Positions 48,145-57,970 of a stretch of 64,000 nucleotides of DNA are shown here, piece after piece. Location: the NCBI GenBank assembly GCA_900753325.1, contig CAADYO010000001.1, forward strand, positions 66,546 through 130,545, read 5' to 3'. Origin of the DNA: Bacilli bacterium. GTDB taxonomy: Bacteria > Bacillota_I > Bacilli_A > RF39 > UBA660. The notes under the pieces were generated by a model. That model was not told where the DNA came from, made no database searches, and saw nothing but the letters and a program-made list of their open reading frames with translations. Position numbers and translations under genes: made by a program. Position 1 is the stretch's first letter, and the number at the start of each line of letters is the position of its first letter.

Positions 48145-49023
48145 TTATTGCATTTCTTTGAAACATAATGTTTTTTCAATTACATTTCTAACATCAGTTT
48201 CTGTAAATGGTTTACCTAACATATCAATAATTGGATATTTAAAAGCTTTTTCAATTGTTTCCTTTGTTGAGTCTCCAGAAATAATTGATACAGGCATTTC
48301 TGCAAATAATTGTTGCTCGTTCATATAATTTAAAACGGCAAATCCATCTACTTTTGGCATGTTTAAGTCGAGTAATATAGCCACTATTTGTTGATTAGAG
48401 GTATTAGCTTTAATAATGTTTAAAGCTTCTTCTCCGTCTCTTGCAAAACCTACATTATATTTTTCACTAAAGATTCTTTTTACAAAGTTGCGAATTATTG
48501 TTGAATCATCAGCTACTAGTATGGTCTTTTTTGTGTATACTTCTGCTGGTGGAAGATTTGATTGGACTGGAGCTGGTGTTGGAGCTGGTTGTGGAGCTGC
48601 TGGAGTTGGTGTTGAAGCTTCTGGTGTAGGCACAGGTGTTGTTCCTTCTCCTTCTGCATTTGACTCTGGCGAAATGTATTTTTTGACAATATTAATAGTT
48701 CTTTCAACCTCATCTATCAAAGATTGATAGTTTTCGTATACATAAAAAACGTCGCCTTCTTTACTTTTCATTTCGTGATTATAAGCAAGTTCTGCGAGCT
48801 TTGTAAAGCCAAAATATTTAGCATCACTTTTTAATGAATGAACATAAATTGCATAGTTTGGCATATCTTTTTCATCTTTATACTTTTGCAATTTAGCTAA
48901 TTTTTCTTTAGCGCTTACTAAAAACTCCCCAACAGTTTCATTGTATGTATCAATATCTCCAAATAATTCCAGACTCTTATTTACGTCTACTCCGTTTGAT
49001 ATTAAATAATTTACATCGTACAT
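48145..49023 (-). CDS. Hpt-domain / response-regulator receiver fusion protein (phosphorelay intermediate)
   Basis: The 292-aa ORF has an N-terminal Hpt motif (HSLKSDAKYFG). A P/T/A-rich linker follows. The C-terminal REC domain has DD (ADDS), a phosphoacceptor Asp (LLDLNMP) and a conserved Lys (GKP). Confidence 0.7.
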   Translation of the reverse strand: MYDVNYLISNGVDVNKSLELFGDIDTYNETVGEFLVSAKEKLAKLQKYKDEKDMPNYAIYVHSLKSDAKYFGFTKLAELAYNHEMKSKEGDVFYVYENYQSLIDEVERTINIVKKYISPESNAEGEGTTPVPTPEASTPTPAAPQPAPTPAPVQSNLPPAEVYTKKTILVADDSTIIRNFVKRIFSEKYNVGFARDGEEALNIIKANTSNQQIVAILLDLNMPKVDGFAVLNYMNEQQLFAEMPVSIISGDSTKETIEKAFKYPIIDMLGKPFTETDVRNVIEKTLCFKEMQ

Positions 49024-49354: not shown

Positions 49355-50053
49355 TTATTTTCGATGATTATATATTATTGGGTATGGATTATCATATTTA
49401 TCTAGAGTTGCTGTTTTTAGTGTTCCTAAACCTGCTGTTTCTACACTTGCTGCAGCATCATATATTATATTGCATTGCCAATCTGTCCAAATCTCATCTA
49501 ATTCATATTCATCTTTTTCAGATAGCATATCAGACAAAGCTATGACAAAATCTGTTTTAGTCTCACAAGCTCTTTGAATCATATCTGATGTAGCTTCCTC
49601 TGGCATATATCCAATTATTAAATCCGTATTTTCTAAGCTTACACTGCAATCAAAGCGTTGCTTTCGAAGAATTAAATTTGGATATGGTATTCTTGATGGA
49701 ATTATTAGTCTTGGGTCATATACTGTAATGGTTCCGGTCTGTTGTCTCATGGCAATATATTTTGCTAAACTGGGTATTCTTCCGCCTCCAACTTCCAAAA
49801 TACGTTTATTAATTCCATGAACTTGTTCAATTAAATTAAGAAATCCTAAATACAAATTATGCTCTGGTTCCATCAAGTCTAGTTCAGCATATAACTGACG
49901 AACTAACTCTGGTGAAAAGTCTGTTACCATACCAGAAGAATACCAGCTTAAAATTTGTTTTATTTCTTCTTCTGTATAATCATTTTCATGTAGGACTAAG
50001 TATTCAGTTATTTTCTTTTTTAATTCTTCTTCTGTTATATTTTTTTTCAGCAT
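49355..50053 (-). CDS. Hypothetical protein, possibly a SAM-dependent methyltransferase-like fold
   Basis: The 232-aa ORF has a glycine-rich ILEVGGGRIPSLAKY segment. There is no firm motif assignment. Confidence 0.4.
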   Translation of the reverse strand: MLKKNITEEELKKKITEYLVLHENDYTEEEIKQILSWYSSGMVTDFSPELVRQLYAELDLMEPEHNLYLGFLNLIEQVHGINKRILEVGGGRIPSLAKYIAMRQQTGTITVYDPRLIIPSRIPYPNLILRKQRFDCSVSLENTDLIIGYMPEEATSDMIQRACETKTDFVIALSDMLSEKDEYELDEIWTDWQCNIIYDAAASVETAGLGTLKTATLDKYDNPYPIIYNHRK

Positions 50054-53033: not shown

Positions 53034-53171
53034 TAATATATACCTCCTTTTATTAATAACTTAAGACTCGCTCTCAAGGTACAAATAAATTGTTTAAAAC
53101 CTTTTCAATGCGGTTTGAGCATGAGGCGTCAAACATCTAGATTATAGCATAACTATTTTAACCTGTCAACT

Positions 53172-54896
53172 TTACTTAGTACTTGGTTTAGAAATTTCAG
53201 GTAGTGTTTGGATATAACTATCTATTTTACTATCAGGTATAAAGAAATCATCTCTGTCTAAAAATGCTGGTAAATCTTCTTTAGACACTGGCATATCAAT
53301 AGACTCCATAACAATTGCTCTTTTCCATTTTACATTACTTGCATTTAATAAAGAAATATCCTCCCTAACATCTGACATATACTTACTTTTTCCTATTAAA
53401 GCAAGTCTTTCGGCTAACTCTTCACGGGCAAAAAAGGAAATATCAGAGTCCTTTTTTATACTTCCTAATAAATTTTCTTCTCTAAGCAAATCAATTCTTT
53501 TTTTAAAAGCTATAGAATCGACTAATAAAATAGAAGTATTGGAATATAAATATTTTGGATTAATATTATTTGTAGTAAAAGTATTTATATTTTCTAAGAC
53601 AGTTGAATAGACATTACTATCAGTAGAAAATATACTCATATGACTTTTATAAAATTCGCTCGGTATTATTTCTTTTTCTGTAAATGAACTTAAAAGAGAT
53701 ATTGTTGTACTATTACTTACTGACAATATTTTATATATATCGTCTGGGTTAGTTATTTTTATTTTCTTTAGTCCATCTAAGGCTTCCTGTAATTCTTCTT
53801 TTGTGTATCTTGATGTAACACATTCTAGAAATTCTTTATTATTAGGCATAGAAAAACTAGAAAGTATTTGGGCATATGCAGATACTTCTGTTGAAAATGT
53901 TTTATTATATTTTTCTTGAACTTGTTCTGCTATTGCTAGGTTATTTCTATAGACATAATTTAAAAAAAGCAATTGTAAATCTTGATCTGGAATGGAAGCT
54001 AATAAAGTGCGATAATTAGTTATTTCACCTGGTGTTTCCACTTGCTTTTGAAAAAGTGCTAAAAATTCTCGATATTTTAGAGATTTTTTATTTTTTACTC
54101 TTACTCTCTTATTTATTACTGTTTGTTTTGCATTATAATAAGCTGCTATTTTTTTGTATTCTGATATAAAATCCTTAAATTCATCTGTTTTCATTATTTT
54201 ACGAAAAAGATTGTTCCTATCTTTCTTTGAAAATGATTTGTCATTTATATCCACTGGGTTATTATCACAATTCAAAATTATTGTCTCACCAGTATTAGAA
54301 CAAATTCCTTGCGCTGTTTTTATAATATTGATAGCGTGAATTCCTTCTGCTAGTTTTTCTGTACTTTCTAAAACTTTTCTTTTTTCATCTTCATCTAATG
54401 AACATTCTTCATCTGAATTAATAACCTCGTCTATCATCAAATCCAACAATTCCATAAAAGCATTTGCTGAATCTAAGTATGTTTCATCTAATCCATGCTT
54501 CTTTAATGATTTTATTAGTTTTTGATTTATGGAAAACTTTTTTATACCTTTTGTAATAGAGTTACTTTCATCGTTCTTTACTAAATCATTGTGTGATGAT
54601 ACAATTTTTTTTAAAACGCTTGATAAATCCTTTCTTGTTAATTCTGGATTTTCTAGTAATGGTTTTAATCTATTAAAAATGATATCTATTTTTTCAAAGT
54701 CAGCATTAAGCCATGTTAGGGTATGTGCCATAAACATTTGTGTTATATTTATTTTGGCAATACTATCTAAACAAAGCTCCGAATTGTTTTCCAAAAAGTT
54801 TTTTAGGAATAAAGTCTCTTCATCCGGCTCTATTACCTCATTTTCTATAAGAAAAAGCCTTTTATTAAATTCTTCTATTAATTCTTCTGCTGTCAT
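53172..54896 (-). CDS. Large hypothetical protein (574 aa), no recognisable domain
   Basis: The ORF is soluble (no TM) and N/K/S/E-rich. It overlaps the upstream gene by 4 nt (ATGA) and ends 138 nt before rplU. Confidence 0.5.
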   Translation of the reverse strand: MTAEELIEEFNKRLFLIENEVIEPDEETLFLKNFLENNSELCLDSIAKINITQMFMAHTLTWLNADFEKIDIIFNRLKPLLENPELTRKDLSSVLKKIVSSHNDLVKNDESNSITKGIKKFSINQKLIKSLKKHGLDETYLDSANAFMELLDLMIDEVINSDEECSLDEDEKRKVLESTEKLAEGIHAINIIKTAQGICSNTGETIILNCDNNPVDINDKSFSKKDRNNLFRKIMKTDEFKDFISEYKKIAAYYNAKQTVINKRVRVKNKKSLKYREFLALFQKQVETPGEITNYRTLLASIPDQDLQLLFLNYVYRNNLAIAEQVQEKYNKTFSTEVSAYAQILSSFSMPNNKEFLECVTSRYTKEELQEALDGLKKIKITNPDDIYKILSVSNSTTISLLSSFTEKEIIPSEFYKSHMSIFSTDSNVYSTVLENINTFTTNNINPKYLYSNTSILLVDSIAFKKRIDLLREENLLGSIKKDSDISFFAREELAERLALIGKSKYMSDVREDISLLNASNVKWKRAIVMESIDMPVSKEDLPAFLDRDDFFIPDSKIDSYIQTLPEISKPSTK

Positions 54897-55864
54897 TTTT
54901 CTTCACCTGTCTTTACTTTTTGAAAAGGCTTTTCATTATTCTTTCCTAATAAATTATACAATTCTTCTTGATAAGTTGCTTGAAGCTGCATAAAATCTTC
55001 ATTTTGAATATTTTCCTTTAGAACACTTTCCATTTTCTTAAAACTTGCTGCTCTCAGATTTAGTTGTTCTTGATAATCCTTATTATTATCTGTTTTTTTA
55101 GTAAAGGCTGTAATTACACAATACTCTTTTGGCCCTAGTCTAGAAAATACAACACGTATTTTAAAATCTTTTACTTCAAGTAAACCAGAGGCAGTACTGT
55201 TAGATGTAAGTCTTTTACGATTTTTAAATTTTCCAGAAATAATAGAATCGAATAAGCCAATAAAGCCTTCATAATATTCTGGATCTATATGTTTTAATTC
55301 ACTTATAACGCAAGGATTTCCGGATTGTGTAGGCATAAACACTAATTTATTTTCTTCGCTTATTTGTGCTTCTTCTTCTTTTTCTCTTTCTAAAAATAAC
55401 TCTTTTAAAATCGTTTGTCTTCTAGCATTTTCTTTTATTTCATTATTCAATTCTTCTTTATCTTCTGCGGACATTTCTTCTTCATTGATAATTGTTTCTA
55501 TTTGCCTATTTTCTTTTACTAATTCAGCCATTAATCTTAAGAGAACGTTTTCATAATCATAGTCTTCTTTATTTGGTAAAATCTCTTTTATTTCATCCTT
55601 TGTACACTCGCTTGGTAAAGAAAATAATTCACCTAAATAGTATAAAATATCATCTTCAAAAGACTCATCATCATAAATATCTGGTTCGAGATTTGGATTT
55701 TCTGTTATAGTAGGCTGTTTATCTTCAATACCTTCGATAACGTTGGTGCTAGAATGGTGTTTTTCTATTTCTTTTCTCATGATGCTTGAAGTTCTTATAT
55801 TTTGTTCTATTGCTACTAATAAACTGTTAATATCTTCATTATCATTAATTCTTATAAGTTCCAT
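54893..55864 (-). CDS. Acidic protein with a C-terminal Gp49/HigB-like (RelE-fold toxin-like) domain
   Basis: In the 323-aa ORF, the C-terminal GLLEVKDFKIRVVFSRLGPKEYCVITAFTKKTDNNKDY resembles the HigB/Gp49 signature (ELR...RxxY...xxLLhaFxKKTqKTP). The N-terminal half is acidic and coiled-coil. Its start lies 4 nt after the helicase stop. Confidence 0.45.
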   Translation of the reverse strand: MELIRINDNEDINSLLVAIEQNIRTSSIMRKEIEKHHSSTNVIEGIEDKQPTITENPNLEPDIYDDESFEDDILYYLGELFSLPSECTKDEIKEILPNKEDYDYENVLLRLMAELVKENRQIETIINEEEMSAEDKEELNNEIKENARRQTILKELFLEREKEEEAQISEENKLVFMPTQSGNPCVISELKHIDPEYYEGFIGLFDSIISGKFKNRKRLTSNSTASGLLEVKDFKIRVVFSRLGPKEYCVITAFTKKTDNNKDYQEQLNLRAASFKKMESVLKENIQNEDFMQLQATYQEELYNLLGKNNEKPFQKVKTGEEK

Positions 55865-55867
55865 ATT

Positions 55868-57970
55868 TTACTCCTTTTGTGTTTTGGCATTTTGATAAGT
55901 CTTTGTTTTTTTTGTTTGTCCGGGAGGCTGTTGAAGGCATCTATCGGCAAATTCTTTTACATCAGCAAGGTCTGCAGTTGCATTGGTAAATGGCAATGTT
56001 TCTAGGACTGCTGCTCCATAGTCTTTTATTCTAGAGTCTAGGATTGATACTATTCCTTTATCTGTTTCACTTCTAATTAAACGTCCTGCTCCTTGTTTTA
56101 ATTTTATAAGCATATCTTGTAAGTAGACAGCATTTGAACCACCAGCATAGTATTCTGCTTTGGCATCCATTACAGGATCTACCACGTGAAACGGTAATTT
56201 AGGTATGATAACATTTTCTAGTGACTCACCTTTGATATCTATTCCTTCCCAAAATGAACCAGTTGCAAAAAGACAAGAAGTAGTATCTTCTTTAAAGCTT
56301 TGTTTTAAAGTTTCAGCATCTTTTCCGTCTTCTTGTATGTAGATGTTATAAGGTTTACCTTTTTCTACAATTCTCTTATATACTTCTCGCATATCACTTT
56401 TAGAAGTAAATAATACTAGTGCCCTTCCTTTGGTAACATCTAATAGTTCACTAACCCTTGTAGAGATAGATGATAAATAGGCATCACGATCAGGACTTTT
56501 TGGTGATACTAAGTCTAAAGGGCAATATAACATGGCATTTTCGTCATAATTAAATGGGGATTTTTGTGGGTCTTCTGAAATGATACGGCTACCTATTTTA
56601 TTATCTATTCCTAATCCTTTAGCAAAATACTCATAATCTCCTTCAGTTGTTAAAGTAGCTGATGTGAATACTTTACCATAGTTGGGATTTTTTAATAAAT
56701 TTCTGGCAAGTACTGGGATATTTTTTGGTACATATTGTATCTCAATATGTTCTTTTGTTCCTGGTAAAAATGATGCCCAGTAGACATTTTTTTGTCTTTC
56801 ACTTAATGATATTAGGTCCTGAAAAGCTAATATTGTATCTTGTAGTGTACTAACCTGTTCTAGAAAATCTTTATTTCTATTATAACGACTAGTAAATACA
56901 GCTTCTTCTTCTAGTTCTTTTAATTGTTTTATTAATGTTTCGACTGACTCTTTTATGGCCGGTGTACATTTAAAACTTGAGCTTTCAGAATCAAAGACAT
57001 CAATATTATCAATAGCATGTTTGTTATATTCTCTTTTGGCACTACTGCTTACTTTTCTAAATAAATTATTGATGGTGCCAATCGCCGGTATATCTTCTCT
57101 GACATTCTTATTTAACCCACGATATAATCCATAAATTAATGATTCGAGTTCGTGTTTATTTAAACTTTTTTTATAAGAGTCTCTTATTTTTTCTTCTAAA
57201 GTATGAGCCTCATCTACAATTAGAATAGATGGTTCTCCCAGTAAAGGACTTTCACTGTCCCTTTTTAGTGATTCTACCAATAAGTTATGATTACAAATAA
57301 TAGCATGGGATTCTGGCCAACGTTTTCTTTTTACTCGGTAAGTACAATCTGATTCATATACACAACTACTGCATCTAACTTTATCAACATTCATCTTTTT
57401 CCAATCTGCTTGACTGATATCATTAAAATCTGCACGTTCAACCTTGCCTTCTTTTATTCTTTCTTTAATACTTTCTACTTTTTTTGTCTGACCGGTATTT
57501 CTTTCAAAGTATTCAAAACGTCTTTTACATAAATAATTGCTTCTTCCTTTAGCAATTGTAACATTTATCTTTGGTAGACCTAGCATTTCTGATAGAGTTT
57601 CTATTTCTTTTTTTAATTGGTCTTGTAGGGCCTTTGAAGATGTTGAAATGATAAATCCTTTAAATTTATCACTACCAGAACTTGCGTATATTAAAGGCAC
57701 TAAATAGGCCCAAGATTTACCTGAACCTACTCCTGATTCAATTAAAAGAATACTACGATCTTTTATAGCATCGGCTATATCTAGTGCCATAGTATGTTGA
57801 CCTTCACGATATTCTAAGGTCTTACTTTCAGCTAAATTTGCGAAGAAACTATCAATTTGTTCTTCTTGATCACGACTTAATATTTGATTTTCTTTTTCCC
57901 AAACATATCTCATATCACACCAGCCCTTTTCTTGAGTGCATATTATACTATAAATCCGTTTAAAAGTCAA
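55868..57970 (-). CDS. DinG/Rad3(XPD)-family Fe-S DNA helicase
   Basis: The 700-aa ORF has Walker A (ESGVGSGKSWAYLVP) and a DEAH box (LIVDEAHTLEE). A four-Cys cluster (C...CSSCVYESDC...C) lies between the motifs. The likely true start is MRYVWEK at 57913. Confidence 0.7.
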   Translation of the reverse strand: MTFKRIYSIICTQEKGWCDMRYVWEKENQILSRDQEEQIDSFFANLAESKTLEYREGQHTMALDIADAIKDRSILLIESGVGSGKSWAYLVPLIYASSGSDKFKGFIISTSSKALQDQLKKEIETLSEMLGLPKINVTIAKGRSNYLCKRRFEYFERNTGQTKKVESIKERIKEGKVERADFNDISQADWKKMNVDKVRCSSCVYESDCTYRVKRKRWPESHAIICNHNLLVESLKRDSESPLLGEPSILIVDEAHTLEEKIRDSYKKSLNKHELESLIYGLYRGLNKNVREDIPAIGTINNLFRKVSSSAKREYNKHAIDNIDVFDSESSSFKCTPAIKESVETLIKQLKELEEEAVFTSRYNRNKDFLEQVSTLQDTILAFQDLISLSERQKNVYWASFLPGTKEHIEIQYVPKNIPVLARNLLKNPNYGKVFTSATLTTEGDYEYFAKGLGIDNKIGSRIISEDPQKSPFNYDENAMLYCPLDLVSPKSPDRDAYLSSISTRVSELLDVTKGRALVLFTSKSDMREVYKRIVEKGKPYNIYIQEDGKDAETLKQSFKEDTTSCLFATGSFWEGIDIKGESLENVIIPKLPFHVVDPVMDAKAEYYAGGSNAVYLQDMLIKLKQGAGRLIRSETDKGIVSILDSRIKDYGAAVLETLPFTNATADLADVKEFADRCLQQPPGQTKKTKTYQNAKTQKE

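Follow-up and report, generated by a model that had tools for sequence, protein, structure and literature searches.

Two adjacent genes on the minus strand of the window (the whole stretch of DNA analysed, 64,000 nt), designated P2 and P3, may form a chromosomally fixed, atypical HigB-type pair of an RNase and its regulator that is toxin-antitoxin (TA)-like and carries the toxin gene first, as in higBA. This reading draws on sequence and structure models and is tentatively preferred here; it is likewise plausible, if far from certain, that P2-P3 represent a lineage-specific two-gene cassette of uncultured gut Bacilli that is vertically inherited. What the data show is how the genes are built and arranged, how their products fold and how well they are conserved, that they keep their synteny and that they are under purifying selection. 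Together the two proteins constitute an undescribed protein-pair family in which a HigB-type nuclease fold is joined with an unprecedented large helical partner, and literature searches on DinG+HigB systems and on fused RelE toxins yielded nothing relevant. The pair is syntenic and seemingly fixed within the species, which sets it apart from mobile TA and defence loci, and it belongs to gut bacteria that are abundant and poorly known.

Three ORFs are present on the minus strand at 55868-57970, 54893-55864 and 53172-54896, the first of which encodes a helicase. The TAA codon of the helicase gene (55868-55870) is separated by 3 nt from the ATG of P2 (55864), for which a Shine-Dalgarno sequence, AAAGGAG, is found within the 3' end of the helicase gene, and the window sequence shows no promoter-like site between the two genes. 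Further downstream, the TGA of P2 and the ATG of P3 overlap in the sequence ATGA (54896-54893). Upstream, a sigma-70-type promoter (TTGACT-17-TATAAT, 11/12 matches; 57942-57970, minus strand) that serves the helicase-P2-P3 operon is located directly after a terminator-like hairpin with a 12-bp stem and a T-rich tail (58010-57982, minus strand) which closes the upstream His-phosphatase gene. At the other end, a perfect extended -10 promoter of the rplU operon (TTGACA-17-TGcTATAAT; 53141-53169, minus strand) begins 2 nt past the P3 stop and bounds the module, whose downstream boundary is also marked by a ribosomal protein L21 leader located outside it, upstream of rplU (RF00559; 53054-53125, minus strand; 37.6 bits for a gathering score of 36). 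Because of this promoter and leader, rplU is not obligatorily co-expressed with P2-P3. The tight coupling of the three ORFs and their organization as a single operon, both put forward in the preliminary description, are thus confirmed in the source genome by the 3-nt gap, the ATGA overlap, the upstream terminator and promoter and the next promoter downstream. In the window, P2 is not preceded by its own promoter, so that autoregulation of the classical kind, through a TA operator, is not evident; in loci devoid of the helicase, the spacing upstream of P2 ranges from 35 to 690 nt.

The helicase ORF had initially been given a start at position 57970. The TTG found there opens the TTGACT -35 box and is not a start codon; the true start is the ATG at 57913, resulting in a product of 681 aa (55868-57913, minus strand), which is also the gene-caller length on the 10 strain contigs listed. 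Based on its sequence, this product is an Fe-S helicase of the DinG family, in agreement with the DEAH helicase with a four-Cys Fe-S domain recognized earlier. It displays the SF2 motifs (DEAH box, Walker A GVGSGKS) and the Pfam domains Helicase_C_2 (1e-37) and DEAD_2, and Cys129, Cys181, Cys184 and Cys190 (681-aa numbering), which are located between Walker A and Walker B and are invariant across 7 orthologues, match in a phmmer alignment the cysteines of E. coli DinG (6fwr; C-x73-C-x4-C-x5-C), whose Fe-S ligands are C120, C194, C199 and C205. Walker A, the DEAH box, the four aligned Cys and Helicase_C_2 are thus shared with E. coli DinG and YoaA (XPD-like Fe-S SF2 helicases), from which the window helicase differs in that it reaches none of the NCBIfam equivalog cutoffs (369.5 bits versus 680 for YoaA, 307 versus 789 and 285 versus 598 for DinG models) and in that it shares an operon with P2-P3 in one sub-clade. 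The DnaQ exonuclease domain that the long Firmicute DinG carries is missing from it as well. In PADLOC, only generic type-IV DinG models were matched; a type IV CRISPR helicase was considered and rejected, no repeat array or cas genes occurring in the window and no csf among the neighbours.

P2 (323 aa; 54893-55864, minus strand) comprises an acidic helical N-terminal domain (residues 1-165) and a HigB-like domain (residues 166-306; 54947-55369, minus strand). In the structure model, the latter adopts a RelE-like alpha/beta fold, with helices followed by an antiparallel sheet, and its best fold matches together with its conserved residue pattern correspond to a HigB-type RNase and not to ParE. 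In S. pneumoniae HigB, the active-site residues are E66, R68, R73, F90 and K92 (PMC7984235). Residues E230, K232, R237, F254 and K256 of P2 occur with identical spacing, at a uniform offset of 164, and each is invariant or at least 90% conserved across the family. The same E, R/K, R, F, K spacing and a C-terminal helix beyond the sheet are found in HigB of the Gp49/PF05973 type (S. pneumoniae 6af3; M. tuberculosis HigB1 7nbu), which is devoid of the added 165-aa acidic N-terminal domain. The P2 of the window further differs from this type by a PF05973 score below threshold (16.2 bits for a gathering cutoff of 23.9, E 0.011), and 7 of 50 family members match this model at E<=0.01 (best 1.2e-5). 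Overall, P2 had no match reaching threshold when searched against Pfam, NCBIfam, PADLOC and PHROGs, and PDB sequence searches with P2 and P2 C-domain profiles returned nothing meaningful. The N-domain has a net charge of -27 and a pI of about 4.2, that of the HigB domain being 9.2, and this charge split has the polarity typical of antitoxin and toxin. The HigB-like C-terminal domain claimed in the preliminary description is thus upheld by the fold and the active-site pattern, as is the lack of an HTH antitoxin partner, no HTH being detected in P3. When compared to ParE/RelE superfamily toxins in general, P2-P3 differ in domain architecture, partner protein and genomic behaviour.

P3 (574 aa; 53172-54896, minus strand) was modelled as an all-alpha protein in which an N-terminal bundle is followed by a coiled-coil hairpin of basic character (residues 223-347) and by an acidic solenoid that is weakly mTERF-like. 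The solenoid corresponds to a C-terminal helical-repeat region (residues ca. 348-560; 53217-53855, minus strand) with a weak mTERF-like resemblance, in which repeat units of ca. 33 aa each open with xP; MTERF4 is among its best fold matches, with Foldseek E-values that are not significant. As stated earlier from the sequence, P3 has no recognizable motif: searches of Pfam, NCBIfam, PADLOC, PHROG and PDB sequences yielded zero matches, neither an HTH nor any other Pfam domain was detected, and Pfam mTERF (PF02536) was matched neither by P3 nor by 43 relatives. Self-comparison with hhalign gave a negligible signal of internal repeats, and a profile search for distant relatives retrieved fewer matches than a single-sequence search. 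The P3 family comprises 316 clusters at 50% identity. Its longer members carry a C-terminal extension of ca. 70 aa (RTYxIxGxxISKNKVxRN) that is absent from the P3 of the window and in which an HTH was suspected, but for which the Pfam search was empty.

The resemblance to mTERF (human MTERF1, MTERF3 and MTERF4) and to pTERF, the prokaryotic mTERF-like DNA binders (PMC11417379), is limited by the missing Pfam match and the non-significant Foldseek values. While nucleic acid-binding mTERFs and pTERFs are basic, the corresponding region of P3 is acidic; its pI is about 5 in the P3 of the window, the median across the family being 4.8-5.3, and these values are a proxy for net charge only. Near-identical tandem repeats such as those of pTERF are missing from P3, which has an additional N-terminal helical part of 345 aa. 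It would add a second, non-tandem kind of bacterial mTERF-like solenoid. P3 also differs from the partner protein of higBA: P3 proteins are all-helical products of 574-650 aa without HTH, 5-6 times the size of the HigA antitoxin, an XRE-type protein of roughly 100 aa. In one clade, P2-P3 occupy what is presumably the recN position upstream of spoIVB; P3 was nevertheless rejected as a RecN analogue, being all-alpha and devoid of ATPase motifs.

Comparison of 42 related loci revealed that P2 is followed by P3 on the same strand, abutting or overlapping, in every case, while the helicase adjoins the pair in only 11 (10 upstream, 1 downstream). The three-gene module initially proposed is thus reduced to an invariant P2-P3 pair to which a helicase is sometimes adjacent. 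Within the sub-clade that has the operon, its spacing is conserved (gaps of 3-18 nt), and all helicase relatives with at least 49% identity found in metagenomes on a contig reaching past the gene adjoin P2/P3, either as helicase-P2-P3 or as P2-P3-helicase. Five genomes carry ancient tandem paralogous P2-P3 pairs (34-45% and 26-40% identity), duplicated always as pairs. In about 26 of the 42 loci, the pair is located directly upstream of rplU-prp-rpmA-obg, often after addAB; neighbours overall include addAB, xseAB, rplU-rpmA-obg, mraY/PBP, aspS and similar genes, with other clades having the pair beside xseAB/spoIVB, mraY or aspS and cell-wall, tRNA-synthetase and sugar-metabolism genes. The module is present, and the locus invariant, in 10/10 of the conspecific strain-level contigs listed. 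In genomes whose Obg and AddA are 91% and 78% identical, P2 and P3 share 42-45% and 30-33% identity, respectively, a fast divergence that fits co-evolving partner proteins. Their dN/dS values (0.11-0.18 for P2 and 0.20-0.25 for P3) are well below 1, and both are therefore functional genes. Searches of GenBank phage records, IMG/VR and PLSDB revealed no relatives, and no defence-island, integrase, restriction-modification or mobile-element context was found around the loci.

In the TA-like model, P2 would be an endoribonuclease of the HigB type, its predicted nuclease activity residing in a RelE-fold domain whose surface is basic, whose active-site pattern is intact and which is fused to the strongly acidic helical N-terminal domain. 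P3 (roughly 600 aa) would serve as a translationally coupled, all-helical scaffold which, possibly together with the acidic N-domain of P2, may bind the nuclease and restrain or direct it; both the binding and the neutralization are predicted, as is a contact between this acidic N-domain and the basic hairpin of P3. In the sub-clade of the window, capture would have placed the pair in an operon with a DinG-family Fe-S repair helicase beside addAB, so that it would be transcribed here from the helicase promoter. The TA-like reading is favoured by the 42/42 pairing, the duplication of paralogues as pairs, the ATGA coupling, the HigB active-site pattern, the charge polarity within P2, the low dN/dS and the fast divergence of both proteins, while the synteny kept across deep divergence, the occurrence in all 10 conspecific contigs listed and the lack of phage, plasmid or viral copies go against it, higBA loci being mobile or patchy. 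As in type II higBA operons, P2-P3 are bicistronic and translationally coupled, with the nuclease gene first and an overlapping partner gene; the small HTH antitoxin and, in the window, an own autoregulated promoter are both missing. If P2 is active, the pair would offer a test case for the fixation or domestication of toxin folds.

An unlikely, though not negligible, alternative is that P2 and P3 are neither toxin nor antitoxin but a domesticated housekeeping complex, in which the HigB-fold domain and the mTERF-like scaffold function in routine RNA or ribosome metabolism, such as targeted mRNA/rRNA cleavage, ribosome quality control or assembly. This would be consistent with vertical inheritance, housekeeping neighbours (most often the rplU-prp-rpmA-obg genes), presence in the 10 strain contigs listed and purifying selection on both genes, as well as with MTERF4 being among the fold matches, since eukaryotic MTERF3 and MTERF4 have a role in ribosome biogenesis. 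That the two proteins are conserved in a core-genome context, the situation which the preliminary description had set against its own proposal, largely holds for P2/P3, yet they evolve much faster than their housekeeping neighbours and are not demonstrably housekeeping. Ancient tandem paralogous pairs have been kept, rplU has its own promoter and leader, neighbours in other clades (xseAB/spoIVB, mraY, aspS) are unrelated, and the acidic solenoid argues against RNA binding. Rather improbable, too, is a scenario in which a HigB-fold RNase has been domesticated lineage-wide as a core complex with an mTERF-like protein and wired in one sub-clade to DinG, the control of translation thereby responding to DNA-damage or replication stress; if true, a toxin fold would here have been put to housekeeping use and would not form an addiction or defence module.

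Two further hypotheses both appear very unlikely. The RelE/ParE-fold domain might affect DNA metabolism in the way that ParE acts on gyrase, or it might be a structural adaptor, with P2-P3 cooperating with DinG, AddAB or ExoVII, and repair genes (addAB, DinG, xseAB, mutS/mutL-miaA, nfo) are indeed found repeatedly upstream in independent contexts. Neighbourhood by itself is however weak evidence where genomes are small and strongly syntenic, in other clades the pair adjoins genes for the cell wall, tRNA synthetases or sugar metabolism, and the fold matches and residue pattern of P2 designate a HigB-type RNase instead of ParE. The anti-phage or DNA-surveillance architecture suggested in the preliminary description, in which the DinG helicase would sense foreign DNA and a HigB-like effector would abort infection, could account for the tight operon conserved in the sub-clade, for the constant association of the close helicase relatives with P2/P3 in two arrangements and for the rapid divergence of all three genes. 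It does not agree with the helicase missing from 31/42 P2-P3 loci, the locus invariant across the strain contigs listed, the low dN/dS, or the housekeeping surroundings free of defence islands, integrases and restriction-modification genes; moreover, P2/P3 are absent from phage and plasmid collections and have no match in PADLOC (2.0) or PHROG, the helicase itself being recognized by generic models only. A defence system is thus not supported for P2-P3, and helicase adjacency by itself appears to be a poor indicator of such systems.

The three minus-strand ORFs of the preliminary description are real, and their junctions can be read directly: the TAA stop of the DinG-family helicase gene (55868-55870) is followed, after 3 nt, by the ATG (55864) of the gene for a 323-aa protein (P2; 54893-55864), whose ribosome-binding site AAAGGAG sits within the helicase 3' end, and the P2 stop overlaps the ATG of the gene for a 574-aa protein (P3; 53172-54896) as ATGA at 54896-54893. 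Upstream, a terminator-like hairpin of 12 bp (58010-57982, minus strand) closes a histidine-phosphatase gene and is directly followed by a promoter, TTGACT-17-TATAAT (57970-57942, minus strand). Because the TTG at 57970, from which the longest helicase ORF had been read, begins at the first base of the -35 hexamer of this promoter, the helicase start is placed at the ATG at 57913, giving a product of 681 aa, as also assigned by gene callers on ten conspecific contigs. Two nt past the P3 stop lies a perfect (12/12 consensus) extended -10 promoter, TTGACA-17-TGnTATAAT (53169-53141, minus strand), separated from rplU-prp-rpmA-obg by an L21 leader (Rfam RF00559; 53054-53125, minus strand). No terminator is present between P3 and the rplU promoter, so that transcription could run on from the helicase operon. 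The junctions, promoters and hairpin thus define helicase, P2 and P3 as one transcription unit in this genome, in line with the operon first proposed. Two plus-strand ORFs, of 154 aa (54529-54993, antisense to P2 and P3) and 103 aa (48416-48727, antisense to an Hpt-REC gene), are probably spurious products of low-GC composition.

The conserved unit is P2 plus P3 and not the three-gene module initially described: HMM scans of 42 loci (38 from a scan limited to a single genome for each species, and four metagenomic) found P3 immediately after P2 in all 42, whereas the helicase adjoins the pair in only 11, upstream in 10 that are all close relatives (gaps of 10-18 nt) and downstream in one (L027). 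When metagenomes were scanned with a helicase alignment, all relatives with at least 49% identity and a contig extending past the gene were next to P2-P3, one of them in the order P3-helicase-rplU; relatives at 39% identity were located elsewhere, without the pair. By this adjacency pattern, the helicase subfamily is tied to P2-P3 within one sub-clade, but the pair can do without it. In one relative (L011:3801-5843), the place of the helicase between addA and P2 is taken by a 680-aa coiled-coil protein, unrelated and without a Pfam match, whose tail is Pro-rich. Two tandem P2-P3 pairs occur in five genomes (L017, L020, L023, L029 and L037), and the order P2-P3-P3 in another (L031). Between tandem copies, identity is 34-45% in P2 and 26-40% in P3, which marks them as old paralogues; since copies "a" and "b", including the rplU-proximal one, are each orthologous across genomes, duplication of the pair predates speciation.

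P2 has 66 relatives in a protein database clustered at 90%, and a P3 profile search returned 316 clusters at 50% identity, nearly all of 590-650 aa. Nearly all of the 38 species-scan loci belong to MAGs of uncultured organisms from the gut of humans, ruminants and rabbits, labelled "Bacilli bacterium", "Tenericutes" or "Mycoplasma sp. CAG:877". In ca. 26 loci the pair is directly upstream of rplU-prp-rpmA-obg, often following addB-addA, and in two (L016 and L038) it comes next after addA with no helicase in between. Another clade carries it between xseAB and a SpoIVB-type peptidase gene, and other loci beside PBP/mraY, aspS, LD-carboxypeptidase, nfo, miaA or ftsW. No integrase, restriction-modification or recognised defence genes were seen around the P2-P3 loci, and no P2 or P3 relatives were found in phage records, IMG/VR or PLSDB. 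At the strain level, the order addA-phosphatase-helicase-P2-P3-rplU occurs in 10 of the 10 contigs shown, which were retrieved via an identical L21 protein.

The domain content first assigned to the three products was borne out. The helicase carries Helicase_C_2 (1e-37) and DEAD_2 domains, a Walker A motif and a DEAH box. C129, C181, C184 and C190 of the 681-aa helicase, all four invariant in its orthologues, align with cysteines of E. coli DinG (PDB 6fwr); in E. coli DinG these are the Fe-S ligands C120, C194, C199 and C205. The protein is classed as DinG/YoaA-like, although it falls below every cutoff of the NCBIfam equivalog models and, unlike the long Firmicute DinG, is devoid of a DnaQ domain. 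In P2 (all P2 and P3 residue numbers count Met1), the HigB active-site pattern is intact: E230, K232, R237, F254 and K256 match E66, R68, R73, F90 and K92 of S. pneumoniae HigB with a uniform offset of +164, and each is invariant or at least 90% conserved family-wide. The HigB domain is basic (pI 9.2), and the first 165 residues are helical and very acidic (net charge -27). Sequence searches for relatives of P3 found none in Pfam, NCBIfam, PADLOC, PHROGs or PDB. The predicted P3 structure is wholly helical (pLDDT 80), with a C-terminal half built of ca. 33-aa units each opening with xP; both in the window protein and across the family this half is acidic, so that a classical nucleic-acid-binding mTERF or pTERF (PMC11417379) is unlikely. 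The mTERF resemblance, itself weakly supported, is taken to describe the fold and not to place P3 in the family. Most family members (homologues of at least ca. 600 aa, such as L001:8980-10845, P0089 and P0094) have an extra C-terminal module of ca. 70 aa with the motif RTYxIxGxxISKNKVxRN and no Pfam match, which is lost in the sub-clade of the window (P3 of 574-579 aa).

In compared genomes where Obg, AddA and L21 are 91%, 78% and 96% identical to the window, identity is 42-45% for P2, 30-33% for P3 and 50-53% for the helicase. Between near-identical strains, dN/dS is 0.11-0.18 for P2, 0.20-0.25 for P3 and 0.09-0.10 for the helicase, with 0.05 for Obg and 0.04 for AddA; by these measures, all three are functional, fast-evolving genes under purifying selection. 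Against the closest species-representative genome (L005), synonymous divergence over 50-62 kb varies from ca. 0.03 to 1.2 between adjacent genes (0.03 in the N-half of P3, 0.19 in AddA, 0.69 in the helicase and 1.18 in Obg), a mosaic that suggests frequent homologous recombination among strains.

We tentatively favour an atypical, chromosomally fixed toxin-antitoxin-like pair, in which a HigB-type nuclease, P2, would be held in check or directed by the large co-translated helical P3, and possibly also by its own acidic N-domain. The intact active-site pattern, the toxin-first and overlapping gene order, the strict pairing (duplications as pairs included), the acidic/basic charge polarity and the fast co-divergence of P2 and P3 point to this reading; against it stand the syntenic, non-mobile distribution, apparently fixed within the species, the very large partner without HTH, and the absence of a P2 promoter of its own in this window. 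Less probably, the same pair is a domesticated factor with a housekeeping role in RNA or ribosome function. The facultative helicase, the missing defence-island signal and the invariance of the locus across the strain contigs shown count against the anti-phage or DNA-surveillance system of the preliminary description, with all three genes taking part, which is now improbable; a DNA-repair accessory role for P2-P3 is hardly likely either. Whereas the folds are already known, the architecture joining an acidic domain to a HigB fold, the partner family P3 and the core-like genomic behaviour are new.

Finally, three genes downstream of obg, a 292-aa protein (48145-49023, minus strand) joins Hpt and receiver domains by a Pro/Thr/Ala-rich linker; it could be a phosphorelay component, given that spo0B adjoins obg in Bacillus. 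Two relatives (L001 and L004) carry SpoIVB, SpoIIM and Cse60 genes. Between this Hpt-REC gene and that of an EEP-family nuclease/phosphatase, a 232-aa protein with no Pfam match (49355-50053, minus strand) is conserved and syntenic in many relatives, with 35-58% identity.
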